DNA of 64,000 nt from Rhodobacter sp. GTDB taxonomy: Bacteria; Pseudomonadota; Alphaproteobacteria; Rhodobacterales; Rhodobacteraceae. The notes beneath the pieces are model-generated. The model worked only from the letters and a program-made list of their open reading frames with translations, did no database searches and had not been told where the DNA came from. The stretch covers positions 3,436-67,435 of the forward strand of contig JADJAB010000018.1 in NCBI GenBank assembly GCA_016704435.1. Reading direction: 5' to 3'. The translations under genes and the position numbers were made by a program. Below, one piece after another: positions 2,316 through 31,333 of this stretch (position 1 is its first letter; the number at the start of each line of letters is the position of its first letter).

Positions 2316-2395
2316 GGGGCCGCCTGCTCTGTTTGAAAGAGCAAGCGTAGCCCGCCGCAGGACTGCCCAGCAGCGTCAGAACCTCACCCCGAAAG

Positions 2396-2490: not shown

Positions 2491-2586
2491 AATCACGCGG
2501 GCCGACCGCCCTCAAGCAGATCAATGGGTCCTGACCCTAGGGTATTTCTATAAATCAACCAACCGACGTGATCTGGCGGTAGTGTC

Positions 2587-3475: not shown

Positions 3476-3594
3476 GTTGATGAGATATGAACTTTATGCT
3501 TAGCGTCATATAATCACACATCGCCTTTCTGCTTGCACATAATTTCATGCAAACATGCTTGCTGTGTTCGTATAGCAAGCAGGAGTCCGCGAAG

Positions 3595-4644: not shown

Positions 4645-4855
4645 CCGCCGCCTTCTTCGCAATCTCGGCCCGTCGCTCTGGCGTCATGCTTGCAGCGCGG
4701 GCCTTTCCGCCCTTCTTGCCCATAGCCTGAGCGGCCTTGTCCTTGCCGTCATCCTCCGGCGCGTCCTCGACCTCACCCGTGGCGATCTTGCCTATCAGCA
4801 CCGCCAGCCCCACCGCGTCGGCGGGGCGCTTTTCTCCGTTTGGTCCTTTAGGCAT
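4619..4855 (-). CDS. small basic hypothetical protein (78 aa, KGG-like motif), IS passenger
   Basis: GGAGG RBS upstream. MPKGPNGEKRPADAVGLAV...GKKGGKARAASMTPERRAEIAKKAAAKRW. This type of protein is seen next to IS1/IS1595 transposases. Confidence 0.75.
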   Translation of the reverse strand: MPKGPNGEKRPADAVGLAVLIGKIATGEVEDAPEDDGKDKAAQAMGKKGGKARAASMTPERRAEIAKKAAAKRWGHSG

Positions 4856-5005
4856 GGTGTCCTCCGTATGCTTACCGTCTAGCATATAGGAAGCGCGGGG
4901 CGATTGCGACACCTGTCAACCCCGCCCATTTTCAAACTGAGACACTACCGAGCAGCGAGGTCGCCAGTGGTGCTTCAGGGGCAGCCGAAGGTCTAATGCG
5001 GGCGG

Positions 5006-8146: not shown

Positions 8147-8178
8147 GGGAGGCCTGCATTTTGACCATGCGGCCTCCC
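8147..8178 (-). terminator. hairpin downstream of etfA copy 1
   Basis: GGGAGGCC-(GCAT..ATGC)-GGCCTCCC stem 10 nt after the etfA stop. The identical hairpin lies at 15685-15716. No clear U-tract. Confidence 0.55.
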
Positions 8179-8188
8179 TCGGTTGGTT

Positions 8189-9142
8189 TCAGAAGTGGTT
8201 TTGCAGTTCTTCGGCGATCTCGAACATGTCGCCGACGATGCCGTAGCGGGCGATGCTGAAGATCGAGGCTTCGGGGTCGGTGTTCACCGCCACGATGGTC
8301 TCGACATGCTTCATGCCCCACTGGTGCTGGACCGAGCCCGAGACGCCCATCGCGATATAGAGCTTGCAACTCGCCGCAAGCTGGCCCGACTGGCCGACCT
8401 GCCGCGCCTTGGGCAGCCAGCCGTTGTCGGCGATGGGCCGCGAGCAGCCGAGCGTGGCGCCCATGCCGCCGGCCAGTTCCAGGAACTGCTCGACATTGCT
8501 CTCGTCGCCAACGCCGCGCCCGATCGACAGGATGAATTCCGAGCCGGGAATGTCGATGCCGCCGGCATCGGCGGGCGGCTTCCAGCCCTCATGCGTGGTG
8601 GCGATATCAGCGGCCGGGGCTGCCATCTCGGTCACCTTGGGCGAACCCGAACCGGCGGCCGGCTCGAACACGTTGGTGCGGATGGTCAAGAGCACCGTCT
8701 CCTTGCCGGGGAAGTCGAGGTCGACCAGCACCTTCTCGGCATAGCCGGCACGGGTGGCGACCAGCGCGCCGTCCTCAAGCCGCAGCGCCTGCACATCGGT
8801 GGCCAGGCCGCAGCCCAGCTTGACCGCGGCAGCCGGCGCGAACGACCAGGCATCGACACCGTGCGCGGTGGCGATCAGCGCGGGCTTGCGCGCCTCGGCC
8901 AGCGCCAGGATCACCGCCTCGGTCAGGTCGGGCTGGAAGTCGTCGCTCGCCTTGATGGCGATCACCTCGTCCACCCCCTCGACCGAGAGCGCGCCGACAA
9001 GCGCCTGCGGATCGGCGGCGATCAGGGCAACCGCCAGCGTGTCGCCCGCCAGCTTGACGCTGCGTGCGGCGGCGATGGCCTCCAGCGACGCCGGGTGCAG
9101 TTCACCCGCGCGCTGTCCGGCAATGACAAGAAGTTCAGCCAT
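8189..9142 (-). CDS. etfA: electron transfer flavoprotein alpha subunit, TMADH-type (copy 1)
   Basis: 317 aa with GCSRPIAD, RQVGQSG and GVSGSVQH FAD motifs. It closely follows my recollection of Methylophilus methylotrophus ETF alpha (VDFPGK..VLLTIR, SIGRG). Confidence 0.95.
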   Translation of the reverse strand: MAELLVIAGQRAGELHPASLEAIAAARSVKLAGDTLAVALIAADPQALVGALSVEGVDEVIAIKASDDFQPDLTEAVILALAEARKPALIATAHGVDAWSFAPAAAVKLGCGLATDVQALRLEDGALVATRAGYAEKVLVDLDFPGKETVLLTIRTNVFEPAAGSGSPKVTEMAAPAADIATTHEGWKPPADAGGIDIPGSEFILSIGRGVGDESNVEQFLELAGGMGATLGCSRPIADNGWLPKARQVGQSGQLAASCKLYIAMGVSGSVQHQWGMKHVETIVAVNTDPEASIFSIARYGIVGDMFEIAEELQNHF

Positions 9143-9145
9143 GGA

Positions 9146-9931
9146 TCACATCCCCCGCAATTCTTTGATGATTTCGGCCAGACGGGCCGCCTGCTCGGCC
9201 GCCGATCCGGTGATCAGCTCGGCCTTGCCGCGCTCGGGCGCATACATCTTGCGCACCCGCGCAACCGGGGCGATGTCGGCCGCCGACAGCCCCAGATCGT
9301 CCAGAGACAGCTCGTCCACCGGCTTTTGCTTGGCCTGCTTGATGCCGCGCAGCGAGGCATAGCGCGGCTGGTTGATGCCCAGCTGGATCGACAAAACCGC
9401 CGGGCAGCGGATCGTCATGATCTCTTCCAGCCCGCCCTCCAACTCGCGCCGCAGCGTCGCGGTCTTGGCCCCCGGCGTGTAATCAAGGTTGCACACCACC
9501 GCGGCATGCGGCCAGCCCAGCAGGCCAGCCAACGCCATGCCGGTGACCGCCGAGCCGAAATCGGCCGATTGCGCGCCGGTAAAAACCATGTCCGGCTGTT
9601 CACGTTCCACCAGCCTGGCCAGAACCCGCGCAACCGCCACGCCATCGGCTTCGGCCAGCGCATCATCCCAGACCCGGATGCCGCGGTCGGCCCCCTTGGC
9701 CAGCGCGGTGCGCAGCGCATCATCGGCATCCTCGTCGCCGACGATGGCGATCACCACCTCGGCGGCGTCGCCTGCAGCCTCCTTGATCAGCATCGCCTCT
9801 TCGACCGAAAAGTGATCGAATTCGTTGAGATCCTTCTCGAAGAAATCCGCGTCGACATCGCGCCCGTCGGCGCGCATCTCGAACTCGTCATCAAGAAAAG
9901 CGGCCTGCTTGACCGCCACCAGTATCTTCAT
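9146..9931 (-). CDS. etfB: electron transfer flavoprotein beta subunit, TMADH-type (copy 1)
   Basis: MKILVAVKQ...ALAKGADR...RRELEGG...IQLGINQPRYASLRGIKQA, matching the methylotroph ETF beta type. Confidence 0.95.
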   Translation of the reverse strand: MKILVAVKQAAFLDDEFEMRADGRDVDADFFEKDLNEFDHFSVEEAMLIKEAAGDAAEVVIAIVGDEDADDALRTALAKGADRGIRVWDDALAEADGVAVARVLARLVEREQPDMVFTGAQSADFGSAVTGMALAGLLGWPHAAVVCNLDYTPGAKTATLRRELEGGLEEIMTIRCPAVLSIQLGINQPRYASLRGIKQAKQKPVDELSLDDLGLSAADIAPVARVRKMYAPERGKAELITGSAAEQAARLAEIIKELRGM

Positions 9932-10000
9932 CTCTGCTGCTCCATTTCCAGATCCTGTATCAATGCCGAACGCGCCAGATGCGCCGCGGCCGCATGGCGG
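9928..10000 (-). pseudogene. 3' remnant of an LRV/HEAT-repeat gene
   Basis: Reads RHAAAAHLARSALIQDLEMEQQR*, compared with the LRV protein C-terminus RFAAATRLARALLTHDQEWSS* (17469-). Its stop overlaps the etfB ATG (ATGA). Confidence 0.6.
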
Positions 10001-10001
10001 T

Positions 10002-10042
10002 GCCGTGCCCGGGGGGGGTCACCCTTGCGTTCCGGGCACGGC
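10002..10042 (-). terminator. GC-rich hairpin downstream of the GcvT-like gene
   Basis: Perfect 11-bp stem GCCGTGCCCGG / CCGGGCACGGC. No U-tract. Confidence 0.5.
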
Positions 10043-10068: not shown

Positions 10069-11166
10069 CTACATGCGCATGCGCTTTTTCTCTTTGTCGT
10101 AGAACGGAAGGTCTTCGACCGTGACGTCCACGGCATCCGCGGCATTGCCGAGTTTCAGCTTGGTCCCTTCGGCGATGCCCGGGCGGATGTGGACCAGCGC
10201 GAGCGACCGTCCAAGACGGTGGGAATATTCAGAGCTGGTGACCGCCCCGACTTTCTCGCCCTTCAGAAAGAGGTCCGTGCCCCCCTCGATGATGCCTTTG
10301 CTGGAGGTGCAGGAAATACCGGTCAGCCTGACCTTTTCCTTGCCTTCCTTCTTCAGCACGGCCTCCCGGCCGAGGTAGGCGGGTTTCTTGCGGGAGATCG
10401 CCCAGCCCAGCCCCATCTCCCACGGCGTGACCTTGTCGTCCATGTCGAAGGGATAGAACAGCAGCCCGGCCTCCATTCGGCCCTTGTTCAGGCAGGTGAA
10501 AGAGCAAGGAACAACGCCATCCTCTTCGCCGGCCTTGAGGATGCTGTTCCACAGACCAACCGCATCCTTGCGATCAACAAAGATCTCATAGCCGCGCTCG
10601 CCCGAATAGCCGGTACGCGACACGATCGCCTTGTGGCCAAACAGCTCGGTCTGGATCAGCCCGAAAAATTCCACAGCTGCCACGTCCGCAGGGCAGTTCG
10701 CATCAAGCAGCTTCACCGCCTTGGGGCCCTGCAGCGACAGGGTGTGCAGCTCGTCGTCCTTCTCCAGCTTGACGTTCTTGCCTTTTGCCGCAAGGGCCAG
10801 ACGCTCATCGCCAGTGCCGGTGCCGTAGACGAAGAGATACTTGTCGTCTTCGACGCGATAGATGATGACGTCGTCACAGATCGTGCCTTCGTCGGTCAGG
10901 ATCGGGCAATAGGCCGATTTGCCCTTGGTGACCTTGCTCATGTCACGGGGCGAGACCATGTCGATGACGGCCGAAGCGTCAGGCCCCTTGACCCAGATCT
11001 TCTTGAGACCGGTAAGGTCGAACAGCCCGGCCGCTTCGCGCATGGCGTCCAGTTGGTTGTCGGCTGAGTTGGTATAGCTCCACGGCACGTCCATGTCGTT
11101 CCATGGTCCAAGCCCGGCGCCCAGGCCGCGGTGAATGTCCTCGAGTGCGGATGTTCGTTTGGCCAT
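10069..11166 (-). CDS. stand-alone GcvT-like aminomethyltransferase (THF-binding)
   Basis: 365 aa with GLFDLT, EGTICDDVIIYR, SRTGYSGERGYEI, RMEAG and LPFYD C-terminal motifs. No gcvH or gcvP nearby. Confidence 0.9.
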   Translation of the reverse strand: MAKRTSALEDIHRGLGAGLGPWNDMDVPWSYTNSADNQLDAMREAAGLFDLTGLKKIWVKGPDASAVIDMVSPRDMSKVTKGKSAYCPILTDEGTICDDVIIYRVEDDKYLFVYGTGTGDERLALAAKGKNVKLEKDDELHTLSLQGPKAVKLLDANCPADVAAVEFFGLIQTELFGHKAIVSRTGYSGERGYEIFVDRKDAVGLWNSILKAGEEDGVVPCSFTCLNKGRMEAGLLFYPFDMDDKVTPWEMGLGWAISRKKPAYLGREAVLKKEGKEKVRLTGISCTSSKGIIEGGTDLFLKGEKVGAVTSSEYSHRLGRSLALVHIRPGIAEGTKLKLGNAADAVDVTVEDLPFYDKEKKRMRM

Positions 11167-11404: not shown

Positions 11405-13675
<2,271 letters not shown>

Positions 13676-15684: not shown

Positions 15685-15716
15685 GGGAGGCCTGCATTTT
15701 GACCATGCGGCCTCCC
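15685..15716 (-). terminator. hairpin downstream of etfA copy 2
   Basis: Identical to 8147-8178. Confidence 0.55.
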
Positions 15717-15726
15717 TCGGTTGGTT

Positions 15727-16680
15727 TCAGAAGTGGTTTTGGAGTTCTTCGGCGATTTCGAACATGTCGCCGACGATGCCGTAGCGGGCGATGCTGAAGA
15801 TCGAGGCCTCGGGGTCGGTGTTCACCGCCACGATGTTCTCGACATGCTTCATGCCCCATTGATGCTGGACCGAGCGCGAGACGCCCATCGCGATGTAAAG
15901 CTTGCAATTGGCCGCAAGCTGACCCGACTGGCCGACCTGGCGCGCCTTGGGCAGCCAGCCGTTGTCGGCGATGGGGCGCGAGCAGCCAAGCGTGGCGCCC
16001 ATGCCGCCGGCCAGTTCCAGGAACTGCTCGACATTGCTCTCATCGCCAACGCCGCGCCCGATCGACAGGATGAATTCCGAGCCGGGAATGTCGATGCCGC
16101 CGGCATCGGCGGGCGGCTTCCAGCCCTCATGCGTGGTGGCGATATCGGCGGCAGGGGCTGCCATCGCGGTCACCTTGGGCGCGCCCGAGCCGGCGGCCGG
16201 CTCGAACACGTTGGTGCGGATGGTCAGGAGCACGGTGGCCTTGCCGGGAAAGTCGAGGTCGACCAGCACCTTCTCGGCATAGCCGGCACGGGTGGCGACC
16301 AGCGCGCCGTCCTCAAGCCGCAGCGCCTGCACGTCGGTGGCCAGGCCACAGCCCAGTTTCACCGCGGCGGCCGGCGCGAACGACCAGGCATCGACGCCGT
16401 GCGCGGTGGCGATCAGCGCGGGCTTGCGCGCCGCGACCAGGGCGGTGATCACCGCCTCGGTCAGGTCGGGCTGGAAGTCGTCGCTCGCCTTGATGGCGAT
16501 CACCTCGTCCACCCCCTCGACCGAGAGCGCGCCGACAAGCGCCTGCGGATCGGCGGCGATCAGGACAACCGCCAGCGTGTCGCCCGCCTGCTTGACGCCG
16601 CGTGCGGCGGCGATGGCCTCCAGCGACGACGGGCGCAGCTCGCCCTCGCGCTGCCCGGCAATGACAAGAAGTTCGGCCAT
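15727..16680 (-). CDS. etfA: ETF alpha subunit (copy 2); G-to-R change in the FAD motif
   Basis: Near-identical paralog of 8189-9142. GVSRSVQH instead of GVSGSVQH, from a single base at 15876. Confidence 0.92.
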   Translation of the reverse strand: MAELLVIAGQREGELRPSSLEAIAAARGVKQAGDTLAVVLIAADPQALVGALSVEGVDEVIAIKASDDFQPDLTEAVITALVAARKPALIATAHGVDAWSFAPAAAVKLGCGLATDVQALRLEDGALVATRAGYAEKVLVDLDFPGKATVLLTIRTNVFEPAAGSGAPKVTAMAAPAADIATTHEGWKPPADAGGIDIPGSEFILSIGRGVGDESNVEQFLELAGGMGATLGCSRPIADNGWLPKARQVGQSGQLAANCKLYIAMGVSRSVQHQWGMKHVENIVAVNTDPEASIFSIARYGIVGDMFEIAEELQNHF

Positions 16681-16682
16681 GG

Positions 16683-17467
16683 TCACATTCCCCGCAATTC
16701 TTTGATGATTTCGGCCAGACGCGCCGCCTGTTCGGCCGCCGATCCGGTGATCAGCTCGGCCTTGCCGCGCTCGGGCGCATACATCTTGCGCACCCGCGCA
16801 ACCGGGGCGACGTCGGCCGCCGACAGTCCCAGATCGTCCAGCGACAGCTCGTCCACCGGCTTTTGCTTGGCCTGCTTGATGCCGCGCAGCGAGGCATAGC
16901 GCGGCTGGTTGATGCCAAGCTGGATCGACAAAACCGCCGGGCAGCGGATCGTCATGATCTCTTCCAGCCCGCCCTCCAGCTCGCGCCGCAGCGTCGCGGT
17001 CTTGGCCCCGGCGTGTAATCAAGGTTGCACACCACCGCGGCATGCGGCCAGCCCAGCAGTCCGGCCAGCGCCATGCCGGTGACCGCCGAGCCGAAATCGG
17101 CCGATTGCGCGCCGGTGAAGACCATGTCGGGCTGTTCACGCTCCACCAGCTTGGCCAGAACCCGCGCAACCGCCACGCCATCGGCTTCGGCCAGCGCATC
17201 ATCCCAGACCCGGATGCCGCGGTCGGCCCCCTTGGCCAGCGCGGTGCGCAGCGCATCATCGGCATCCTCGTCGCCGACGATGGCGATCACCACCTCGGCC
17301 GCGTCGCCCGCCGCCTCCTTGATCAGCATCGCCTCTTCGACCGAGAAGTGGTCGAATTCGTTGAGATCCTTCTCGAAGAAATCCGCGTCAACGTCGCGAC
17401 CGTCGTCGCGCATCTCGAATTCGTCATCAAGAAAGGCGACCTGCTTGACCGCCACCAGTATCTTCAT
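16683..17467 (-). CDS. etfB: ETF beta subunit (copy 2), one frameshift in a C-run
   Basis: Paralog of 9146-9931. It has 4 C at 17006-17009 where copy 1 has 5 C (9469-9473). Confidence 0.88.
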
Positions 17468-17468
17468 C

Positions 17469-18875
17469 TCAGCTGCTCCATTCCTGGTCATGTGTCAGTA
17501 AGGCGCGCGCAAGCCGTGTTGCGGCGGCAAAGCGCACCTGCGGCTCGGGATCGTCCAGCAGACGCTCCACCAACGGCAGCGCCAGGCCGCGATGCCCCGC
17601 GAGGATCGCGCGGTTCAACGGATACGGATCCTCGGCCAGATGCCCGAGAACGCCCGGCGGCGCGGCGCGGTTGAAGGCGACAGAGCGGCGCACATCCTTG
17701 TCCGGATGGCGGGCGATCACGTCCAGTTGTGCTGCGGGGGTGCGCGGATTGCGCCCCAGCGCGCCCAGCACGTCGCGATCTTCATCACCCGTCAGACGGG
17801 CGATGGCCGTGTCGGGTGCATCTTCACGCAGGGCCACTCCGGCGCGCACCCAGGGCTGCGGATCGGTGGCAAGCGCCACCAGCAGATCCGGCGGGCAAGC
17901 CGGATTGCGGGCCACGCTGCGCCGCACCTCCGTCTCTGGATCGGCCGCCAGCTGGCCTAGCAGGGCGCGCGGCAGGTCGGGATTGCGGGCGATCCAGCGC
18001 CGCACCCAGACATCCGGGTCGGTCGTCAGCCGTTCCATCAGAGACGACGAAAGCCGACTGCGCCTGGCAAACAGACGACGGACCCTGGCTGAAGGGTCGC
18101 CGGCCTCGTCGAGACAGTCGCCCGAGACGGCCGGATTGCGGACCGCCGCCGCACGCACTCGCTCATCTGGGTCGGCCAGCAGGTTCAGAAGCGCCGCCTC
18201 AGCGATGGCGGGGTTTGCGGCGCGTTTGCGGCGGATCAGCGGATCGGTCGCCGCCTCGGCCTCGGCAAGGATGTCGGGCGGGCAATTCGGGTGCGCCGCC
18301 ACCTCGGCGCGCACCCAGACATCGTCCGCGTTCCAAAGGTGGCGCAGGGTCGGCGCATTGGCCTGCGGTGCTGCGGCGGCGTTGCGCGCAATCTGGGCGT
18401 CATCTTCTGCCGCCAGCCGCGCGATCACCGCAGCGGGCGCATGGGCATTGCCCGAGACCGTGCGGCGCACCTCGACCGATCCGTCCTTTGCCAGCCGCGA
18501 CAGGATCGCGGCATCCGCCTGCGGATGGGCGGCGATGTAGCGGCGCAGGCGGTCATCCGGGCCGCCGCGCAGCAGACGGCCAAGGGCGGTGGTCGGTGTG
18601 GCCGGGTTCTTCACCAGCCGCAGCGCCAGCGGTGCCGAGGCCCCGCGCGACAGCCGGTCGAGCAGATCGGGCGGCGCATAGGGGGCAGAGGCCACGATCA
18701 GCCGCAGGCGCGGGGTTGCCAGGATGACCGGTTCCAGTTCCGACCGTGCCATGGCCCCGGCATGGGCATAGGCCCCAAGCGCCGCGTAGGGATCGCCGGC
18801 CTTCACGAGCCGGTCGATCAACGCGCTGGCGGCAGTCTCAGGCTCCATTTGCCGGTTTTCCGCCAAGCAGTTCAT
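17469..18875 (-). CDS. LRV/HEAT-like repeat solenoid protein (468 aa)
   Basis: About 16 repeats of ~24 aa, consensus VRxxVARNPxxPxxLLxxLAxDPD. ATGA overlap with the upstream Fe-S gene and a 1-nt gap to etfB. Confidence 0.85.
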   Translation of the reverse strand: MNCLAENRQMEPETAASALIDRLVKAGDPYAALGAYAHAGAMARSELEPVILATPRLRLIVASAPYAPPDLLDRLSRGASAPLALRLVKNPATPTTALGRLLRGGPDDRLRRYIAAHPQADAAILSRLAKDGSVEVRRTVSGNAHAPAAVIARLAAEDDAQIARNAAAAPQANAPTLRHLWNADDVWVRAEVAAHPNCPPDILAEAEAATDPLIRRKRAANPAIAEAALLNLLADPDERVRAAAVRNPAVSGDCLDEAGDPSARVRRLFARRSRLSSSLMERLTTDPDVWVRRWIARNPDLPRALLGQLAADPETEVRRSVARNPACPPDLLVALATDPQPWVRAGVALREDAPDTAIARLTGDEDRDVLGALGRNPRTPAAQLDVIARHPDKDVRRSVAFNRAAPPGVLGHLAEDPYPLNRAILAGHRGLALPLVERLLDDPEPQVRFAAATRLARALLTHDQEWSS

Positions 18876-21031
18876 GCCGTCGCTACCGGTTCGGTCGCAT
18901 CGGCATCTTCACCCAGGGACGGCGTGTTATGGGCCAGTCCCATGGCTTCCTGAACCAGTTCGATCAGTTCCATCACCTTGAACCTGCCTTCGTTTCCGGT
19001 GCCCTTGACGCCGTCTTCCATCATGTTCAGGCATTTCGGGCAGTTGACGACCAGCACGTCCAGCCCGGCGATCTCGGCCGCCTCGGCGGCGCGCAATTCA
19101 GCCGGCTTCTTCATTTCCGGGGGATCGGCCAGCCAGATCCGGCCACCACCCGCACCGCAGCAGAACGAGTTGTCGCGGCTGCGGCGCAGTTCCACCAGAT
19201 TGACGCCCAGCCGTTCCAGCACCTGACGCGGCGGCTCCGTCCCGTCGTTGATCCGGCCAAGGTGGCAAGGGTCATGATAGGTCACACGATACTTCAGGCT
19301 GACCGGCGTTGGCACGGTGCCCTCGCGGATCAGCCGCTCCAGCATCGCGCTTGCATGCTCGATCTGGTAGGTGCCGCCGAACTCGGGATATTCGTTCTTG
19401 ATGGTGTTGTAGGTGTGCGGATCGGTGGTGACGATCGACTTGAAGTCGCAGCTGTTCATCAACTCGATATTGGCCTCGGCCAGCGACTGGAACAGACCTT
19501 CTTCGCCAACGCGGCGGACGTCGTTGCCGGCGGTCTGCTCGTCCTCATAGAGGATGCCGAAGTCGATCCCGGCCGCATGCAGGATGCGGGCAAAGGCGAT
19601 CGTCACCTTTTGCGAGCGCGGATCGAATGAGGCGTAGTCACCGACATACCACAGCACGTCCACCGGCTCGGTCCGCGCGTCCTTGACCTCGAAGTCCAGA
19701 TCCTTGGTCCAGCGCGGCCGCTTGCGCTTGGACTCGCCCAGCGAGTTGCCGGATTTCTGCAGGCTCTTCAGCGTCGATTGCAACATCGGGTCGAACTCGC
19801 CCGCTTCCAGCAGCGCCCGGCGCATCTGCACGATCATCGGCAAGTGTTCGATCCCCACCGGGCAGATCTCGACGCAGGCGGCACAGGTCCGGCAGGACCA
19901 GACCGTTTCCGGACGGATCATGTTGACGCCGTCGCCAGAAATGGTGATCGGTCCTTCGGGCATGCTGGCGTGCGACAGCGTGTCGTTGGCCAACTCACGC
20001 AGGCTCAGCACCAGATCGCGCGGCGACAGCGGGTAGCCGGCGGCATTGGCCGGGCAGGCCTCATGGCAGCGCCCGCATTTGGTGCAGGCATCGACGTTGA
20101 CCATGTATTTGTCGGTGAAATCGGTAAGCAGGGAAAAGCCGATCCGCTCGCCCTCGACATCGGCCGTCGGCATGCGCCGCTTGGCCTCGGGGTCGCGCGC
20201 CATCAACGAGCCCATCGCGGTGAAGATGTGCTTCACCTTGGTGTAGGGAACCAGCGAGATGAACAGCAGCGCCAGCATCCCGTGGAACCACCACAGGCTC
20301 ATGCGCAGTTCCGCCGCCCCGTCAGGACCAAGGCCCAGCGCCTTCATCAGATAGGCGGTCGCGGTGCCCACCGGCGCGAACCAGCGGTAATCCCAGACCG
20401 ACGGGTCGCCCTGAAGCCAGACCACGCGCGACGCTTCCAGCAGATAGCCGGTGAACGCAATCGTGATCAGCGTCCAGAGAAAGGCCCAATCCTCGCGCCG
20501 ATAGCCCGAGCGGTCATAGTCCGGGTCGCCGGGCGAGCGGTCGGGGCGGGTATAGTCAAGCCGGGGCAATGCCAGCCATTTGCGCCGATACATCATGTAG
20601 AGCAGCCCGCCGATCAGCGCGACGCCCGCCAGATCCATCACCGTCCCGAAGGCCAAATAGAACCAGCCATACCAGAAGTGGATGCCAAACGGGCCCAGGA
20701 TGTCCTGGTCCAGCGTGATGGTGCTGGTACCGATGAAGAGCAGCGCAAAGCCGAAGAACAGCCAGCTGTGGCTGATGCCCGCCGCCCGCGCGCGCCGTTT
20801 GATGGTGCGATGGGACAGCACCGTCGTCACCATCTGACTGAGCCGCGGCCAGAATGGCGACCAGGCACCCGAGCGCACACCGCGACGGTATTTGCGGATA
20901 TGCGTCCAGACCCCGTAGAGGAAAACACCGATCGCCAGAAATCCGACTATGTAGAAGCTGACGATCATCCAGGTCGGGAAATCCTGAAACAGGATACGTG
21001 TCACGTCCTTTGGGTTGTGTTCGGGAAACAT
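18872..21031 (-). CDS. membrane-bound Fe-S oxidoreductase, FadF/YwjF/EMO type (NarI-like TM domain, two 4Fe-4S, two CCG domains)
   Basis: N-terminal TM helices, CTKCGRCHEACP and CRTCAACVEICP, YHDPCHLGR, CCGAGGG and NCPKC. Confidence 0.88.
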   Translation of the reverse strand: MFPEHNPKDVTRILFQDFPTWMIVSFYIVGFLAIGVFLYGVWTHIRKYRRGVRSGAWSPFWPRLSQMVTTVLSHRTIKRRARAAGISHSWLFFGFALLFIGTSTITLDQDILGPFGIHFWYGWFYLAFGTVMDLAGVALIGGLLYMMYRRKWLALPRLDYTRPDRSPGDPDYDRSGYRREDWAFLWTLITIAFTGYLLEASRVVWLQGDPSVWDYRWFAPVGTATAYLMKALGLGPDGAAELRMSLWWFHGMLALLFISLVPYTKVKHIFTAMGSLMARDPEAKRRMPTADVEGERIGFSLLTDFTDKYMVNVDACTKCGRCHEACPANAAGYPLSPRDLVLSLRELANDTLSHASMPEGPITISGDGVNMIRPETVWSCRTCAACVEICPVGIEHLPMIVQMRRALLEAGEFDPMLQSTLKSLQKSGNSLGESKRKRPRWTKDLDFEVKDARTEPVDVLWYVGDYASFDPRSQKVTIAFARILHAAGIDFGILYEDEQTAGNDVRRVGEEGLFQSLAEANIELMNSCDFKSIVTTDPHTYNTIKNEYPEFGGTYQIEHASAMLERLIREGTVPTPVSLKYRVTYHDPCHLGRINDGTEPPRQVLERLGVNLVELRRSRDNSFCCGAGGGRIWLADPPEMKKPAELRAAEAAEIAGLDVLVVNCPKCLNMMEDGVKGTGNEGRFKVMELIELVQEAMGLAHNTPSLGEDADATEPVATA

Positions 21032-21130
21032 CCGGAGCGTTCCTTTGCGTTTATATCGGCGCCGTACTGGCACCGGATGTCAGGGAAATGGCGGCCAGGC
21101 ACTCTCTCGCATGGCCGCCAGAGTGTCAGA

Positions 21131-23344
<2,214 letters not shown>

Positions 23345-23372: not shown

Positions 23373-23945
23373 TCAGCTATTCGTTGCGGTCGGATCCTGC
23401 GTGGCGAGCAGAAGCGCCGCGCCAAGAAACTTGCGCATGTCGTCGAAGACGGCCGGCTTCTCGCCGCGCCAGCGGTCGTGCAGCCGGAAGGGCGCGGAGG
23501 CGCCGTTGGCCGCAGCATCAAGGCAGGCGGCCGCTTCGCGCGCAAAATTCAACGTCCGGCGGCGCATGTTGGCCTGATAGGTGTCCCAATGCTTGGCCTC
23601 CATCCGCAGATGGAACAGCGAACTGCGGGCACGCCGGGCAATGGTCATGCCCTCGACCCAGTCCGGCACTGCGCCCCACAAACGAAGGGCATGGGCATAG
23701 CGCCGCCGCGCCAGGGCCTCGTTCCCGGTCAGCCGTGCCGCCATCCCGGCATTGGCAAGGCTGGTCGCATAGCGCGGATCGCTGCGCGAAAGCCGCAACA
23801 TCGCCAACCACCAGGCGCGCCGCCACAGGCGCGCGGCGCGGTGGCTGTCGCCGTTGCGCAGCGCGGCATGCGCCTGCTCCTGCAGCCGTTCCCAGCCCAG
23901 GTCACAGCCACGCCACCCCGCAGCACGCGCTGCGGCAAGCCCCAT
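23373..23945 (-). CDS. conserved hypothetical TPR-like protein (start uncertain: 23945, 23981 or 23993)
   Basis: Helical segments RAARLWRRAW, DPRYATSLANAG and ARRRYAHALRLW. It sits between the ABC ATPase and tmd on the same strand. Confidence 0.65.
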   Translation of the reverse strand: MGLAAARAAGWRGCDLGWERLQEQAHAALRNGDSHRAARLWRRAWWLAMLRLSRSDPRYATSLANAGMAARLTGNEALARRRYAHALRLWGAVPDWVEGMTIARRARSSLFHLRMEAKHWDTYQANMRRRTLNFAREAAACLDAAANGASAPFRLHDRWRGEKPAVFDDMRKFLGAALLLATQDPTATNS

Positions 23946-23952
23946 ATCGGGC

Positions 23953-24658
23953 TCAGGCGCCAAGATAAGCACGTCGGACATGGTCGTTCTCATGAAGATC
24001 CCTCGCTTTCCCCTCAAGCACGAGGTCACCGGTTTCGAGCACATAGGCGTGGTCCGCCAGTTCCAGCGCCAGCTCGGCGTTCTGTTCCACCAGGATCACC
24101 GCAACGCCCTGCTTGCTGATTTCCTCGATGATCACCGCGATCTCTTCGACGATGACCGGGGCGAGGCCCATCGACGGCTCGTCAAGCAGCAGCAGTCTGG
24201 GCTTGGCCATCAGCGCGCGGCCGATCGCCAGCATCTGCTGCTCGCCGCCGGACATGGTCTTGGCAAACTGGGTGCGCCGTTCGCGCAGGCGGGGGAAGCG
24301 CTGAAACACTGCCTCCAGATCGGCGGCAACCTGCACCTTGTCGCGCCGCAGGAAGGCACCGGTGCGCAGATTTTCCTCAACGGTAAGGTCGGGGAATACC
24401 CGCCGCCCTTCGGGCATGGGCGATGCCGCGGGCGACAATTTTCTCGGGCGGCAGCCGGTCGATCCGCTGACCATCAAACCAGATCTCGCCGCCTGACAGT
24501 TTCGCAAGACCCGAGATCGCGCGCAGCGTCGTGGTCTTGCCGGCGCCATTGCCGCCGATGATCGTGACGATCCCGCTTGCCGGGGCCTGCAGCGTGATAT
24601 TCCGGATCGCCGAAACCTTCTGGTAGTTTACCGATGCGTCCTTGACCTCAAGCAACAT
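23953..24658 (-). CDS. HAAT-family ABC ATPase (LivF-like), frameshift near 24415
   Basis: GGNGAGKTT, MSGGEQQMLAIGRALM and LLLLDEPS motifs, split over two frames. Confidence 0.9.
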
Positions 24659-25442
24659 GGCGCGCACCTCCAAGATAGGCCTCGATCACCTTGGGATCGT
24701 TGCGGATATCCTTTGGCGCGCCTTCGACCAGAAGCTGGCCGAAGTTCATCACCGTGATCCGGTCGCACAGGCCCATGATCGCCTGCATGTCATGTTCGAC
24801 CAGAAGGATGGTGACACCACGGTCACGGACCTTGAACATCAGGTCCATCATCTGCCTGGTCTCTTCGGGGTTCATGCCGGTGAAGGGTTCGTCCAGCAGC
24901 AGCATGTCGGGTTCGGCCGCCAGTGCCACGGCCATGCCAAGCGCCCGTTGGTGCCCATGCGAAAGCTCGGCCGCCAGTTCGTGCGCGCGCAGTTGCAGGC
25001 CAAAGAAGGCCAGCGTTTCGCGTGCCTTCGCCTCGTTCTCACGGGCGGCCTTCGCCCCGGTGCCCAGGATCGCGCCCAGCAGCGTGGGGCGTTGGTGCAT
25101 GTAGCGACCGACCATGACGTTTTGCAGCAGTGAGAACTCCTGAAACAGGGTCGAGTGCTGGAAGGTCCGCACCAGCCCCCGCGCCGCCACCTGGGGCATG
25201 GTCAGCCCCGAGATGTCCTGCCCCTTGTAGAGCACCCGCCCCTCGGTCGGCGTGTAGTAGCCGCTGACAACGTTGAACGTTGTGGTCTTGCCGGCACCAT
25301 TGGGGCCGATCAGCCCGTGGATGGTGCCGGGCTGGACCGAGAAGCTGAGGTTGTTGATCGCCGTCAGCCCGCCGAAGCGCATCGTCAGGCCGTTGACCTC
25401 CAGCAGCGGTCGCGCGCCGGCATTTGTCCGGTCATCCTTCAT
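24648..25442 (-). CDS. HAAT-family ABC ATPase (LivG-like)
   Basis: FGGLTAI, GPNGAGKTT, LLLDEP and VEHDM motifs. Confidence 0.93.
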   Translation of the reverse strand: MKDDRTNAGARPLLEVNGLTMRFGGLTAINNLSFSVQPGTIHGLIGPNGAGKTTTFNVVSGYYTPTEGRVLYKGQDISGLTMPQVAARGLVRTFQHSTLFQEFSLLQNVMVGRYMHQRPTLLGAILGTGAKAARENEAKARETLAFFGLQLRAHELAAELSHGHQRALGMAVALAAEPDMLLLDEPFTGMNPEETRQMMDLMFKVRDRGVTILLVEHDMQAIMGLCDRITVMNFGQLLVEGAPKDIRNDPKVIEAYLGGARHVA

Positions 25443-26434
25443 TTGTTGCCCCCTTGGTCTTGGACACCACAGGAACGGCGGGCTTGCGCCCGAAGATCGC
25501 GCCGGATCTCGGCACCAGGCTTTCAAGGCCCTTTGGCAGGAACAGGACCGATGCAATCAGGATCAGGCCGTAGATCAGCGGCCGGACCTGATCCATCCCC
25601 AGTTCGCGCAAGACAACGTCGTTGAGGATCGTCAACACGATCACGCCCAGGATCGGGCCGTAGAACGTGACCGTACCCCCGACGATCGCCCAGGTCAGAA
25701 CAAAGACCATCTCTTCGACATTGAAGCGGTTGGGATTGACGGTTCCGATGTAATGCGCCAGCAGCCCGCCCGACAAACCGGCAAAGCAAGAGGCGATGAC
25801 AAAGGCCAGCGTGCGGTAATGGCGCGCCTTGACCCCCCACCGACTCAGCCAGCTTGTCCTGCCAATGGACGGCGTGGAAGATCAGCCCCACCGGCGAGCG
25901 TTCAACCCGCCATATGATCCAAAGCGAGACCGCGACCACAATCAGCGCCAGGAAGTAATAGTTGACCGGTTCGAAGAAATCGATCTTCAGCCCGCCGATC
26001 TCGATGGTGTCAAAGCCCGGTATCAGCTTGATCCCCTTCGGGCCACCGAACGGGTCGCGGAACTTGATCCAGATCAGGCGCATGATTTCGCCTGCTGCAA
26101 AGGAGCCGATCAGGAAATAGAACCCCTTCATCCGAAACAGCGGAAAGCTGAGAATAAGGGCGAAAACCCCGGCCACTGCGGCCCCTGACAGCATTGCCAG
26201 CGGCACGGGGAAGCCCGCACTCTTGGTCAGAAGCGCGCTGGCGTAGGCGCCGACGCCCATGATGACGACATGCGCCAGCGACCACTCGCCGGTCAGCGTC
26301 AGCAGCCGGTAGCTGGACACCACCAGGACGTTGATGGTCAGAAAGACCAGCACCTCTTGCTGCGAATAGCTCAGAACAAAGGGCAGCACGACCAGCGCGG
26401 CTGCAAGCAGGATCCATGCGATTATCTTCAGCAT
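25432..26434 (-). CDS. HAAT-family ABC permease (LivM-like), frameshift near 25835
   Basis: Hydrophobic protein with GEWSLAH, GGPKGI and AIVGGTVTFYGPILG. The indel lies in a C6 run. Confidence 0.88.
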
Positions 26435-26448
26435 CCGCCTGCCCCCCC

Positions 26449-27318
26449 CTACGCCCGCTCACGGGTGCCGAAAAGCCCGGTGGGCTTCACGATCAGCACC
26501 AGCAGCATCAGCGTCAGCCCGACGATGTCAGCCATCACGCCGTCGACGAACGTCGTGACGAACGTGTGGACAAAGGCGTAGACGACCGCCGCCACCACGG
26601 CCCCCTCAAGGCTGCCGACACCACCGACGATGATGATGATGAAGGCGGTGACGATGACCGAATGGCCCATGTAGGGATAGGTTCGCACCAGTGGCGCGGT
26701 CAGCGCGCCGGCCACACCCGCCAGCGCCGCGCCGATGAACATCGCGATCCGCGCCGTCTGGTTGATCGAGATGCCCTGCAGCGCCGCCGCTTCAGGATCC
26801 TGGGCGCTGGCCCGCAAGGCCCAGCCGAACCGGGTCTTCTTCAGGAACAGCCAGAGGGCGAAAAGCAGCCCGATCGTCGCCACGATCACATAGAGCCGCT
26901 GGAGCGGCAGGCTGACGCGGTCGGAGAACTGGATGATCTCCTGCGTCGAGGGCGGGATGTTCTCCATCCGCACACCGAAGATCAGCGCCGCCGATGCCTG
27001 AAGCACCAGAAGAAAACCGATCGACGCGACGAGACCGCCAAGCGGGTTGTCTCGGAGCGGCCGGAAGAGCGCCCACTCCATCAGGATGCCGACGAGGCCG
27101 ACGAACACCAGACCGGCGGCAACGGCGACCAGGAAGGGCATGTTCCAGTCACCGTAAACGGCTACCACCGCATAGGCGCCCAGCATGTAAAGCTCGCCAT
27201 GGGCGAAGTTGATCACCCCCATGACGCCGAAGATCAGGACCAGACCGACCGCGACCAGCGCCATGTAGCTGGCCGCATAGGTAGCGTTCAGAATCGTCTG
27301 GGCAAAAAGATCCACCAT
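26449..27318 (-). CDS. HAAT-family ABC permease (LivH-like)
   Basis: GLVLIFGVMGVINFAHGE, ALRASAQDPEAA and IIVGGVGS motifs. Confidence 0.93.
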   Translation of the reverse strand: MVDLFAQTILNATYAASYMALVAVGLVLIFGVMGVINFAHGELYMLGAYAVVAVYGDWNMPFLVAVAAGLVFVGLVGILMEWALFRPLRDNPLGGLVASIGFLLVLQASAALIFGVRMENIPPSTQEIIQFSDRVSLPLQRLYVIVATIGLLFALWLFLKKTRFGWALRASAQDPEAAALQGISINQTARIAMFIGAALAGVAGALTAPLVRTYPYMGHSVIVTAFIIIIVGGVGSLEGAVVAAVVYAFVHTFVTTFVDGVMADIVGLTLMLLVLIVKPTGLFGTRERA

Positions 27319-27405
27319 CAGGCGCCCCCCCCCCGTTTGGCGGAAAAGCGGCCGCTCCGGTGGCGGCACCGGACCGAAGCGGCTGTTGACCTGCGAGCCT
27401 GGGGA

Positions 27406-28710
27406 TCAGGCACGCTGGTAGTACATCGGGCCGAGGGCATCCATGTGCTTGATCAGAAGGTCGCCATGCTTGTCGTACCACTCGGGGATGCTCTTGAAAT
27501 CCTTGATGACCGCCTTGCCGTCTTCGATCACCACCACCGGCCAGTTGCCGACCAGAGCGTTGTCGATCCCGAACAACTCCTTGCCCCACCAGTCGGCTTC
27601 ACCGAAGGCATGCAGACCCTTGCCGCCCTCCTTCATCGCCGCCAGGACGTCGCCGGGTTCCACCGACCCCGCCTTCTCGGCCGCCGCCTTCCACAGATCC
27701 ATGACCGAGGCGTATTCCCACGACACGGCACCCCATTGGTTGGGATGGCGCTTGCTGTACTCGGCGTAGAACTCGTTCGGCTTCTGGAAGTTGATGAAAT
27801 CGGCATTGAGCCCCGGATCGTCGAAATCGGGGAACTGGAAGAGGAACCCTTCCATGAACTCCTTCGACGTCTTGGCGACGATCTGGTCGTAGAAATCGGC
27901 CGTGCAGGAGATGATCTGCCCCTTGTAACCCTGCTGGAACAGCTGTTCACAGATCGGATGGACGTAGTCTGAATAGCAGGTGTCAAGGCAGATGATCTGC
28001 GGATTGCTTGACATCAGCCGGGTAACGATCGGCGCGAAGTCGGTCGTTGCCGGATCGAAGAACAGGGTGTCGTCAAGCATCTCGATGCCGGCCGCCTCGA
28101 ACGCGGCGAGATAGGTCGCGACCGACGGCAGGCCAAGCGCATCCTCCTGCGCGCACATCACCGCGGTTTTCAGCTCGGGCTTGTTCTCGGCCAGCCACTG
28201 GATGCCGGTGACGTTGTAGATCGGGTGCACCTCGCACGGGGCCAGCAGCGTTGCCGTTTCGGGCGACAGGTCCGACGGCAGCAGCGTCGTGCACAGCATC
28301 CCCTCGCGCTCAGCCAGTTGCTGGACACCGGGCCACGGATCCCCGCCCAGCATCATGATCATCTTGACGCCGTCTTCTTTGATCAGCTTGGTCGCGCCGG
28401 CGCGCCTTGCCCGCATCGTATTCGTCGTCATAGGGGAACGGAATTCGACCATATGGGCCTCGCCGGCGATATTGACGCCGCCGGCCGCATTGACCCACTC
28501 GGCCCAGATGAGGCAGCCGTCGAGACCGGGCTTGCCCCAGGCGGCGACTTCGCCGGTCAGCGGCGCGAGAAAGCCGATCTTCACGGTCTTGTCGGCGGCG
28601 CGGGCAGCGCGCGGTACCAGCGATGTCGCCGCCGCCGTTCCCGCAAGCGCGGCCGCTCCGCGCAACACCCTGCGTCGGGTCAGACCATTCTTGAACATGT
28701 TCGCAAGCAT
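27406..28710 (-). CDS. HAAT-family substrate-binding protein with Tat signal
   Basis: GGAGG RBS, TRRRVL twin-arginine leader and KIGFLAPLTG. Two compensating indels near 28400-28445 scramble YDDEYD. Confidence 0.9.
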   Translation of the reverse strand: MLANMFKNGLTRRRVLRGAAALAGTAAATSLVPRAARAADKTVKIGFLAPLTGEVAAWGKPGLDGCLIWAEWVNAAGGVNIAGEAHMVEFRSPMTTNTMRARRAGATKLIKEDGVKMIMMLGGDPWPGVQQLAEREGMLCTTLLPSDLSPETATLLAPCEVHPIYNVTGIQWLAENKPELKTAVMCAQEDALGLPSVATYLAAFEAAGIEMLDDTLFFDPATTDFAPIVTRLMSSNPQIICLDTCYSDYVHPICEQLFQQGYKGQIISCTADFYDQIVAKTSKEFMEGFLFQFPDFDDPGLNADFINFQKPNEFYAEYSKRHPNQWGAVSWEYASVMDLWKAAAEKAGSVEPGDVLAAMKEGGKGLHAFGEADWWGKELFGIDNALVGNWPVVVIEDGKAVIKDFKSIPEWYDKHGDLLIKHMDALGPMYYQRA

Positions 28711-28750
28711 TTCATCTCCTCCCTCTTCTGCAGTCCGGTTAGTCCGGATG

Positions 28751-28786
28751 ACCAGTTTGAACCAATTCGCGACCAAATTAGACCAA
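28751..28786. promoter_or_regulatory. candidate FadR/GntR operator array (four phased half-sites)
   Basis: ACCAG/ACCAA at 28751, 28761, 28772 and 28782. A further AATTGGTCTA at 28911. Located between the divergent ABC operon and the regulator. Confidence 0.5.
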
Positions 28787-28989
28787 GATCAAACTCCACA
28801 GCCTGAACCCCGCCATTGGCAGATGGCTCAATGCCCAATGTAGCGCCAGATTTCGCCAATCTCAACACAAACGACATAAAGTTGCTAAGTTTGGCTTGAT
28901 GGCGAAATATAATTGGTCTATTTTGGGTGAAATTGATACAAGCGAAAATGAATCAAGTGTTGATTTCAGAGGCTTGGGAGATCGCACCA

Positions 28990-29892
28990 ATGACCAATCA
29001 TCCCGCACCGTTCCCGCGGACGACCCGATTTCGGACCGATTGCAGGCCACTTCCCAGCCAGTTCGGCCGCGATTCCGGCCTCACGCGGACTTCGATCGCG
29101 CGCGGCCTCGGGGGCAGACCATCGCCAGATCGGCCGATTCCCCCGCCATGGGACGCGGACGGCGAAATACCCAAGCCGGTCTCGGCCAGGACGCGGCAAC
29201 TGGCCGACCGCCTGTTCGCCGAGATCGTCAGCGGTGCACACAGTTTCGGAACCCGCCTCCCGGCTGAGCGCCTGCTGTCCGAGCAGCACGGCCTGTCGCG
29301 CAACACGGTCCGTCAGGCGCTGGGGTTGCTAGAGCAATTCGGGGTCGTCCAGCGCCGCATCGGCAGCGGCTCGGTGGTCCGCTACCGGCCCGAGCCGCAG
29401 GCCGATCCGCCCCCGGCTCTCGCGCCGAGGCTGCCCAACGCGCTGGACCTCAGTGAGCTCGGCGACATCACCAGCCCTCTGGAGCTAGGCGTCGTCCGCT
29501 CGATCATCGAGCCCGAGATTGCCCGCCTTGCCGTGCTCAACATGACCTCACGCGACATCCAGAGAATCAAGGACACACAGTCCGAGATCGACCAGGTCAC
29601 GGTCGACGGCGAAAGGTTCTCGGCGCTCGATGATTCTTTCCGGATGCAGCTTGCCGAGGGCACGCACAACCCGCTCCTCGTGGCGATCTATACGATGATC
29701 AATCGCGTCAGCAATGACGCCGGCTGGTCGGTGCAGCGGCGTCGGCGGCTGACGCCCGCACGGATCAGGGAATACAAGCTGCAGAACCTGTCACTCTGCG
29801 AGGCGATTGAAAGCCGCGACATCGATTCGGCCGTTGAATTCATGCGGTTGTTGCTGGCCGAGTTCCATCAGGACCTGATGCGCGGCGCGTGA
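28990..29892 (+). CDS. GntR/FadR-family transcriptional regulator (start uncertain)
   Basis: wHTH LPAERLLSEQHGLSRNTVRQAL plus a C-terminal FCD domain (LAEGTHNPLL). Confidence 0.88.
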   Translation: MTNHPAPFPRTTRFRTDCRPLPSQFGRDSGLTRTSIARGLGGRPSPDRPIPPPWDADGEIPKPVSARTRQLADRLFAEIVSGAHSFGTRLPAERLLSEQHGLSRNTVRQALGLLEQFGVVQRRIGSGSVVRYRPEPQADPPPALAPRLPNALDLSELGDITSPLELGVVRSIIEPEIARLAVLNMTSRDIQRIKDTQSEIDQVTVDGERFSALDDSFRMQLAEGTHNPLLVAIYTMINRVSNDAGWSVQRRRRLTPARIREYKLQNLSLCEAIESRDIDSAVEFMRLLLAEFHQDLMRGA

Positions 29893-31178
29893 TCCTCGAA
29901 TGTAGACGCGCCGCTGGCCTGCCGGTCCAAACGCTGGTCCCACATCTGACCGCAGGCCCGCATGTGACTCAGCAGCAGGTCGCCGTGCTTCTCCCACCAG
30001 CCGAGGATCGAGCGGATTTCGACGATCCGGGCGCGCCCGTCCTGAATGCGCACCACCGGCCAGGAGCCGACCAGCGCGTGGTCGATACCGAACAGCTCGC
30101 GCCCCCACCACCGCGCCTCGCCGAACACATTGCGACCGACCCCGCCCAGCTTCATCGCCGACAGGACAACCGTCGGCTCGACGGTCTGGATGCGCTCAAC
30201 GGCCTTGCGCCACATCTCGAGAATGGCGCAATATTGCCACGACACCGCGCTCCACTCGCCCGGAAAGCGGCGATTGAATTCGGCGTAGAACTCGGCCGGG
30301 CGCGGGAAGTCCACGCTGGTATCGCTCAGCGCCGGATCGTCAAAGTCCGGGAACTGGAAGATGAAACCCTCCATGAACTCGCGGCTGGTGCGCTCGATCA
30401 GCGCTGGATAGTTGTCGCAGGTGCAAGACAGGATCTGCCCCTTGAAGCCTTTGCGGTAGGCGGCTTCGGTCAGGGCGTGGACGAAGGGCTCATAGGCGGT
30501 GTCCCAGCAAAGGATGTCGGGCTCGGCGCTCAGCAGCGCATCGACCATGGCATCAGGATCCTCCGGCGCGCCGGTATAGAGTAGCTCCTTCACGACGGTC
30601 ATCCCCGCCGCCGCAAATGCAGCCCGATAGGTGGCAAGCGAGGGCAGCCCCAGCGCGTCGCGTTGCGCGCACAGCGCCACGCGACGCAGTTCGGGCCGGT
30701 TCTCGGACAACCAGTCGACGCCCGTCACGACATAGATCGGATGCACCTCGCAGGGTGCGATAAGGTAGGGGGTGTCCGGCGACAGGTCACTTGGCAGCAG
30801 AGTGGTCGCCAGGATCCGCGACCGGGTCAGGAAATCGCTGATCGCCGGAACGGGATCACCGCCCAGCATGAGAATCATCTTGACCCCCTGCTCCAGCACC
30901 AGGTGCTTGGCACCCAGCAAAGCGCAGGCTGGGTCATACTGGTCGTCATAGGCGACAATCTCGACCCGACGGCGTTGGTCGCCGATCCGCAGGCCACCCT
31001 CGGCATTAAGCCGATCGGCCCAGATCCGGCACCCCTCAAAACCCGGACGCCCCCAGGCCGAAGCGGCACCCGTCAGCGGCGCCAGCACGCCGACCTTGAC
31101 CGCCTCGCGCGCGCGCATGGCATACTTGGGAAGGCTCGCGGAAACCGCGAGATCGGCGCCAAAGGAATAGATGCTCAT
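29868..31178 (-). CDS. substrate-binding-protein paralog without a signal peptide
   Basis: GAGG RBS. Paralog of 27406-28710 (shared APCEVHPIY, CAQxDALGLPS and FMEGFxFQFPDFDDP). The N-terminus MSIYSFGADLAVSASLPKY has no Tat or Sec features. Confidence 0.85.
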   Translation of the reverse strand: MSIYSFGADLAVSASLPKYAMRAREAVKVGVLAPLTGAASAWGRPGFEGCRIWADRLNAEGGLRIGDQRRRVEIVAYDDQYDPACALLGAKHLVLEQGVKMILMLGGDPVPAISDFLTRSRILATTLLPSDLSPDTPYLIAPCEVHPIYVVTGVDWLSENRPELRRVALCAQRDALGLPSLATYRAAFAAAGMTVVKELLYTGAPEDPDAMVDALLSAEPDILCWDTAYEPFVHALTEAAYRKGFKGQILSCTCDNYPALIERTSREFMEGFIFQFPDFDDPALSDTSVDFPRPAEFYAEFNRRFPGEWSAVSWQYCAILEMWRKAVERIQTVEPTVVLSAMKLGGVGRNVFGEARWWGRELFGIDHALVGSWPVVRIQDGRARIVEIRSILGWWEKHGDLLLSHMRACGQMWDQRLDRQASGASTFEDHAPRIRS

Positions 31179-31333
31179 GATATCCTCGTGGTATCGATGG
31201 CGCGGGGTGTGGTTGTGGCAGGCTCGGCCATCAACATCGTTCGGTTGCCGGCTTCGGAATAGGGGACGGTCGCAGGTGCGCATGAACGCCTGCCGGCGTC
31301 GTGTCAACTGGCAGTTTGGACGGGACTATTGCA

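Follow-up and report, generated by a model that had tools for sequence, protein, structure and literature searches.

A membrane iron-sulfur protein encoded between trimethylamine dehydrogenase and electron-transfer flavoprotein genes is a candidate EtfD-type ETF:quinone oxidoreductase

The stretch of DNA considered here (the window) comprises 64,000 nt of contig JADJAB010000018.1 (positions 3,436 to 67,435) from a Rhodobacter sp. assembly, GCA_016704435.1. Its reverse strand carries, in order of transcription, the gene tmd for trimethylamine dehydrogenase (TMADH), a gene for a membrane iron-sulfur (Fe-S) protein, a gene for an LRV/HEAT-repeat protein (the LRV gene), and etfB and etfA, for the beta and alpha subunits of an electron-transfer flavoprotein (ETF; Table 1). 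The Fe-S gene is the subject of this work. An earlier reading of the DNA (the original prediction) had proposed it as the link from this ETF to quinone, and had placed it between tmd and etfBA, which is confirmed, except that the intervening LRV gene was omitted. The open reading frame (ORF) extends from 18872 to 21073, with a likely ATG at 21031 (AAGGAA just before), giving a protein of 719 aa.

The domain layout is largely that expected from the original prediction. Pfam places a 4Fe-4S dicluster domain at residues 308–394, and two CxxCxxCxxxCP motifs (C316-x2-C319-x2-C322-x3-C326-P and C380-x2-C383-x2-C386-x3-C390-P) bear out the pair of 4Fe-4S motifs it described. The CCG family (PF02754) matches in two stretches (E 2.5e-22), and the two CCG domains it listed stand as folds, though not, as will be seen, as two clusters. 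Residues 1–300 have no significant Pfam family; the best, Nitrate_red_gam (PF02665), covers only residues 179–281 and is below the cutoff (17.6 bits against 22.9, E 0.003). The NCBIfam model QmoC also matches the protein (E 6e-8). An AlphaFold2 model made with an alignment of 57 relatives as input (pLDDT 81, pTM 0.79) has five long helices, at residues 20–49, 82–115, 123–149, 179–205, and 236–259. No FAD-binding domain of the canonical flavoprotein ETF:quinone oxidoreductase (ETF-QO; PF05187) was found in the protein by Pfam or NCBIfam, and the ETF_QO domain is absent from every window ORF scanned.

Among proteins of known structure, the top sequence match is EtfD of M. smegmatis (9OJN_A, E 8.6e-72), and the alignment covers soluble as well as membrane regions. 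It is also the top Foldseek match of the AlphaFold2 model, over the whole chain (9ojn, E 3.9e-34, TM-score 0.78/0.76, 751 aligned columns), followed by HdrB, with NarI only at rank 41. The membrane domain aligns with the cytochrome-b domain of EtfD. Membership in the NarI family was rejected, since the Nitrate_red_gam score is below threshold and the Foldseek match to NarI is weak (3ir5_C, E 0.08, TMt 0.47); "NarI/HdrE-like fold," a description weakly supported by sequence, is as far as the resemblance goes. The NarI-like membrane domain of the original prediction is correct as to the five helices and the weak NarI and QmoC matches, while falling short of the Pfam cutoff, and its EMO/FadF-type architecture agrees with EtfD as top match by sequence and fold, except that DgcB and FadF are closer functional analogues than the dihaem EMO (ETF:methylmenaquinone oxidoreductase). 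The Fe-S protein, one polypeptide, belongs to the EtfD/FadF/DgcB family and is of the type of mycobacterial EtfD.

The cofactor ligands listed in the EtfD structure paper were mapped onto the window protein by alignment, and their conservation was scored across the 57 relatives. The EtfD haem ligands His78 and His241 correspond to H88 and H268, which are invariant. Two of the three haem-propionate arginines are kept (R150 and R321, for EtfD Arg137 and Arg306), and the quinone-pocket residues Phe85 and Phe230 of EtfD have counterparts in F95 and F257. The ligands of the two cubane clusters, C316/319/322/326 (EtfD D4) and C380/383/386/390 (D3), are also invariant. For the noncubane cluster D2, C589, C624, C625, C664, C667, and H539 match EtfD Cys637, 672, 673, 709, 712, and His583. 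Taken together, the mapped haem, quinone-site, cubane, and D2 positions are invariant or nearly so. A substitution of C667 by Asp (CPKC to CPKD) was seen in a Methylophilus/Hyphomicrobium/Methylophaga subclade (L019, L043, P0103), which implies a different D2 ligand set there; the subclade includes Methylophilus, the genus to which the W3A1 model system belongs.

The fourth EtfD cluster, D1, is another matter. D465, T500, D537, and T540 replace its ligands Cys503, 538, 581, and 584 in every member of the clade, leaving a cysteine-free first CCG domain that retains H539, the counterpart of EtfD His583. The same alignment shows the D1 cysteines missing from a FadF-like protein of B. thuringiensis, from Paraburkholderia DgcB, and from a haloarchaeal ETF-linked protein, and retained in an EtfD-like protein of Streptomyces. 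The EtfD authors had described FadF and DgcB as lacking them, inferring that ETF donates directly to D2 in those proteins. Because the first CCG domain is without cysteines, one noncubane CCG cluster is expected rather than two, and the sequence indicates that the Fe-S protein probably has only one. This bears on whether the protein could be a catalytic Hdr-like thiol/disulfide reductase, helping for example to deal with formaldehyde from the TMADH reaction in a thiol-dependent way, and not an electron wire. It does resemble HdrB, HdrC, and HdrD, and catalytic Hdr is known to need two noncubane clusters with a displaceable bridging cysteine; the Fe-S protein does not have the two full-cysteine CCG domains and displaceable bridging Cys of catalytic HdrB/HdrD, and its remaining cluster keeps H539, the histidine that makes D2 of EtfD non-catalytic. 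A reductase of this kind is very improbable.

Four histidines are invariant among the 57 relatives (H74, H88, H250, and H268), which prompted consideration of a dihaem arrangement with transfer across the membrane in the style of EMO or NarI. NarI carries two haems on four His in TM2 and TM5, one haem close to each face of the membrane. EtfD has one haem, while EMO is reported to be dihaem and to work in a redox loop driven by the proton motive force. In the AlphaFold2 model, H74 falls in a cytoplasmic segment before transmembrane (TM) helix 2, and no His is found near the periplasmic ends of TM2 or TM5. With H74 outside the membrane helices and no His near the periplasmic face, two haems are less likely, and the dihaem scheme was set aside as the leading model.

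Relatives of the Fe-S protein are numerous. A protein search returned more than 3,800; the closest 120 are 60–89% identical, about 715–720 aa long, and carry generic names only, with Pontibaca methylaminivorans, Aurantimonas, Methylophaga, and Thiohalorhabdus methylotrophus among their named sources. A one-genome-per-species scan found relatives in at least 597 genomes, and synteny was counted on the best 80 loci. These span alpha-, beta-, and gammaproteobacteria, including Hyphomicrobium, Methylophilus, Methylotenera, Methylovorus, Methylophaga, Paraburkholderia, Aromatoleum, and Steroidobacteraceae, so that the alphaproteobacterial framing of the original prediction was too narrow. Wherever the upstream DNA is long enough (70 loci), the Fe-S gene is immediately preceded on its own strand by a TMADH-family gene, the median gap being 121 nt. 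Downstream, etfB and etfA follow in 66 of the 67 loci whose DNA extends far enough, and the LRV gene is present between the Fe-S gene and etfB in 46 of the 67. The conserved order is tmd, Fe-S gene, (LRV gene), etfB, etfA. Among plasmid records, a TMADH orthologue of 70% identity or more is encoded in seven, and in all six that were checked directly the Fe-S gene adjoins it. The copy in Paracoccus aminovorans is named [quoted passage not shown] in RefSeq.

The upstream gene is of the TMADH type in 69 loci and of the dimethylamine-dehydrogenase type in one, from Paracoccus. In this last (L003, a metagenome-assembled genome of Paracoccus sp.), it is 84% identical to the second TMADH-family paralogue of the window and 64% to tmd, so that either type of enzyme can head the module. 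The Methylophilus sp. QUAN locus has, on either side of its Fe-S and LRV genes, genes for close matches to the crystallised W3A1 proteins: a near-identical TMADH (1727 bits) and an ETF alpha (667 bits) that differs at about ten of 319 residues. The gene for the candidate acceptor thus lies between those for the two proteins that make up the classic model system. More distant full-length relatives (35–39% identity) occur in haloarchaea, on a Natrinema halophilum plasmid (L083) and four other plasmids, directly after etfB-etfA and with no TMADH gene nearby; they too are without the D1 cysteines.

The downstream ETF is of the type found in Methylophilus methylotrophus W3A1, as judged from sequence: the window EtfA matches W3A1 ETF alpha (1O94) with E 1e-102, against 4e-29 for the housekeeping ETF of Paracoccus (1EFP). 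The window contains a second etfB-etfA pair, in a direct repeat 7.5 kb from the first (8147–10018 and 15685–17500, 95–97% DNA identity), following a dimethylamine-dehydrogenase-like gene and a gcvT-like gene. The two EtfA proteins are 95% identical and the second etfB is 97% identical to copy 1; there is a single Fe-S gene for the two ETF copies. In etfB copy 1 one base is missing from a short G/C run, near 17005–17006, and the gene is split over two frames. The missing base is present in relatives, in related strains from four DNA metagenomes, in RNA contigs, and in the window's second copy. A dead module was considered and rejected, the base being intact in the second copy and in related strains; the deletion is due to a sequencing error or to a mutation specific to this strain, and no read run identical to the window was found.

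The Fe-S gene is also found in wastewater metatranscriptomes. Near-identical RNA contigs cross the junction between tmd and the Fe-S gene (20914–21358 and 21008–21564) and that between the Fe-S and LRV genes (18682–18987), consistent with co-transcription. Contig depth is higher for tmd than for the Fe-S gene, depth being a poor measure of expression. The spacer between the two contains a G+C-rich hairpin, GGCGGCCA...UGGCCGCC, followed by AUUUCCC (21089–21120, reverse strand), and the whole 99-nt spacer folds at -37.7 kcal/mol (z-score -2.0). Given the drop in depth from tmd to the Fe-S gene, the hairpin may set the subunit ratio, as a partial terminator or as a stabiliser.

These observations make it likely that the Fe-S protein is an ETF:quinone oxidoreductase dedicated to the pathway of trimethylamine dehydrogenase, and probably also to that of dimethylamine dehydrogenase. 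The architecture, fold, ligand conservation, operon conservation, and transcription suggest the following route, in which the haem, the quinone, and every transfer after ETF are predicted. TMADH would oxidise trimethylamine and reduce the W3A1-type ETF one electron at a time, as is established for the W3A1 proteins. Reduced ETF would dock on the cytoplasmic HdrB-like domain and pass its electron to the noncubane [4Fe-4S] cluster D2, from which it would travel by way of both cubane [4Fe-4S] clusters to a single b haem, ligated by H88 and H268 near the cytoplasmic face of the membrane. The haem would then reduce a quinone, presumably ubiquinone in these proteobacteria, at a site that F95 and F257 line. 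The proposed path is in effect the EtfD wire minus D1. EtfD itself binds EtfB, as found by co-immunoprecipitation, and is needed for ETF-dependent beta-oxidation. The original prediction that the TMADH-specific ETF drains into this protein is thus supported by the synteny, the ETF type, the Methylophilus locus, the RNA contigs, and the characterised paralogous module dgcA-dgcB-etfAB.

Two other assignments use much of the same evidence. The protein could be a general ETF:quinone oxidoreductase for all ETF-linked dehydrogenases, located near tmd by chance: EtfD and FadF each serve many acyl-CoA dehydrogenases, and the window has an acyl-CoA dehydrogenase gene of its own (43335–44624). The unbroken linkage to tmd and the nearly unbroken linkage to a W3A1-type ETF, across three proteobacterial classes, are difficult to reconcile with chance, and Paraburkholderia sp. 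PGU19 has a separate DgcB module for dimethylglycine, on a plasmid, with the tmd module on another replicon, which argues for one oxidoreductase per pathway. We regard a general enzyme as unlikely. Alternatively, the Fe-S protein might take electrons straight from TMADH as its membrane subunit, with ETF acting in parallel or upstream. Its gene does come immediately after tmd, at the median gap given above, and DgcAB is annotated as a two-subunit dehydrogenase, DgcB often being called the beta subunit of DgcA. This arrangement seems decidedly unlikely, given that TMADH forms a defined electron-transfer complex with ETF (PDB 1O94), that etfBA is co-conserved in the operon, and that it is EtfB with which EtfD co-immunoprecipitates.

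Some points weigh against a dedicated ETF:quinone oxidoreductase. The best 80 of at least 597 loci are by selection the closest relatives, so mostly orthologues were sampled. The etfB next to the Fe-S gene is frameshifted in the window, though a second intact copy exists, and the RNA contigs may contain some carried-over DNA. The energetics are also awkward. The oxidised/semiquinone couple of W3A1 ETF is reported to be unusually high (Byron and co-workers, 1989). A value of about +150 to +200 mV, which is above the ubiquinone potential, would make the last steps uphill under standard conditions.

TMADH and ETF of M. methylotrophus W3A1 have for decades been a textbook pair for interprotein electron transfer. 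To our knowledge, the partner that re-oxidises this ETF has never been named, and no earlier report linking TMADH to the Fe-S protein was found in the open-access literature searched. The conserved operon names one candidate acceptor, encoded in Methylophilus between two proteins that have been crystallised. The functional assignment is specific and well supported, and is not a new kind of system. It would extend the EtfD family, whose structure was solved recently, from Gram-positive beta-oxidation to methylated-amine respiration in ubiquinone-using proteobacteria, and it shows that each of the N-demethylating Fe-S flavoproteins TMADH and DgcA is accompanied by an ETF and a membrane oxidoreductase of its own. 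It is also relevant to annotation, since at least 597 species genomes carry the gene with unspecific labels, for example "Fe-S oxidoreductase" or "heterodisulfide reductase-related."

The LRV neighbour is a repeat scaffold of 453–592 aa in relatives, weakly conserved at 31–66% identity and with no conserved cysteine cluster, and its gene is missing from loci of the Steroidobacteraceae type. That the protein is an accessory, ETF-docking subunit or adaptor is speculation. The disordered C-terminal tail of mycobacterial EtfD is predicted to bind ETF, and a broader possibility, which we find doubtful, is that the proteins linked to tmd are a clade of their own, widespread in proteobacteria, of EtfD-type enzymes with one CCG cluster. 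They would be the first in the family to work with ubiquinone and an unusually high-potential ETF semiquinone, and the co-translated LRV partner would be a new ETF-docking or gating subunit replacing that tail.

The rest of the methylated-amine cluster is listed in Table 1. The second TMADH-family gene shares about 65% identity with tmd and 81% with a paralogue from Hyphomicrobium zavarzinii. Next to it is the stand-alone GcvT-like gene, which has a homologue after etfA in Paracoccus aminovorans; its product may capture released formaldehyde on tetrahydrofolate. Upstream of tmd, the ABC transporter genes, of the branched-chain-amino-acid type and including two for periplasmic binding proteins, probably serve methylated-amine uptake, and the divergent GntR/FCD regulator its control. 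One small ATPase gene of this group (23953–24549) has an N-terminal part that is not in frame and may be frameshifted too. Three transposase or integrase genes (Mu-type/rve, IS1-like, and DDE_Tnp_1; 786–6824) border the cluster. In Paracoccus aminovorans, Paraburkholderia, Cupriavidus, and Azoarcus, the homologous cluster is carried by large plasmids or chromids.

Table 1. Features of the methylated-amine cluster, in window coordinates (position 1 is the first nucleotide of the window).
Feature	Position	Strand	Basis or remark
EtfD/FadF-type membrane haem-b/Fe-S protein (predicted), 719 aa	18872..21031	-	Pfam, NCBIfam, PDB sequence match, alignment, model, Foldseek
N-terminal membrane domain, residues 1-300, five predicted TM helices	20132..21031	-	alignment, model
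HdrC-like domain, two cubane [4Fe-4S] motifs, corresponding to EtfD clusters D4 and D3	19802..20119	-	
First CCG domain, without cysteines	19397..19669	-	alignment to EtfD
Second CCG domain, ligands of noncubane [4Fe-4S] cluster D2	19019..19285	-	Pfam, alignment
tmd, trimethylamine dehydrogenase, 732 aa	21131..23329	-	1290 bits, full length, against W3A1 TMADH 1DJN/2TMD
LRV/HEAT-repeat protein, 468 aa	17469..18875	-	start overlaps Fe-S gene stop
etfB copy 1, W3A1-type ETF beta	16683..17470	-	frame broken by 1-nt deletion
etfA copy 1, W3A1-type ETF alpha	15727..16680	-	
Second TMADH-family gene, probably dimethylamine dehydrogenase	11405..13663	-	
GcvT-like aminomethyltransferase, folate-binding	10069..11166	-	
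Second, intact etfB-etfA copy (etfB 9146-9931, etfA 8189-9142)	8189..9931	-	
Conserved hypothetical	23391-23918	-	
Branched-chain-type ABC transporter genes	23953-28788	-	
GntR/FCD regulator	28900-29892	+	
Second binding protein	29868-31325	-	

Of the known systems, mycobacterial EtfD (Rv0338c; 9OJN) is the nearest by structure. It unites five TM helices, a b haem, two cubanes, and two CCG domains in one chain, as is predicted for the window protein; the ligands of haem, D2, D3, and D4 and the quinone-pocket phenylalanines are shared, and EtfD is an acceptor of ETF electrons. The two are only 28% identical, however, and the window protein lacks all four ligands of the linear D1 [3Fe-4S] cluster as well as the roughly 30-kDa disordered tail. 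EtfD serves beta-oxidation with menaquinone, whereas the window protein is linked to an amine dehydrogenase and is expected to use ubiquinone. FadF (YwjF) of Bacillus has the same full-length architecture, with a homologous membrane domain and without D1 cysteines. This comparison was made with the B. thuringiensis FadF-like gene (L084) and a published alignment statement; the B. thuringiensis gene differs in being found beside acyl-CoA dehydrogenase genes and not next to etfBA, in a menaquinone organism. In full-length alignments the FadF-like proteins are 28–30% identical to the window protein and the haloarchaeal ETF-linked proteins 36–39%.

EMO of Syntrophus aciditrophicus, compared by description, is likewise a membrane haem/Fe-S link from ETF to quinone, but is dihaem, while the window protein has one haem-ligand pair at membrane positions. 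Canonical ETF-QO, a monotopic protein with FAD and a [4Fe-4S] cluster, does the job proposed here with an unrelated fold and unrelated cofactors; in the nicotine cluster of Agrobacterium S33, the TMADH homologue Pno and its EtfAB use a canonical ETF-QO, Euo.

In operon logic, the nearest characterised counterpart is the dimethylglycine module dgcA-dgcB-etfAB, known from Pseudomonas aeruginosa and Vibrio natriegens and represented here by Paraburkholderia (L082). It too combines an N-demethylating Fe-S flavoprotein of the OYE/TMADH superfamily, a membrane Fe-S protein without D1 cysteines, and a dedicated ETF. There are several differences: only the C-terminal 62% (residues 250–697) aligns with Paraburkholderia DgcB, at 34% identity; the N-terminal domain of DgcB is described as DUF3483, for which the window protein has no match; DgcA is about 26% identical to TMADH, the partner of the window protein; and the dgc module has etfA before etfB and no LRV gene.

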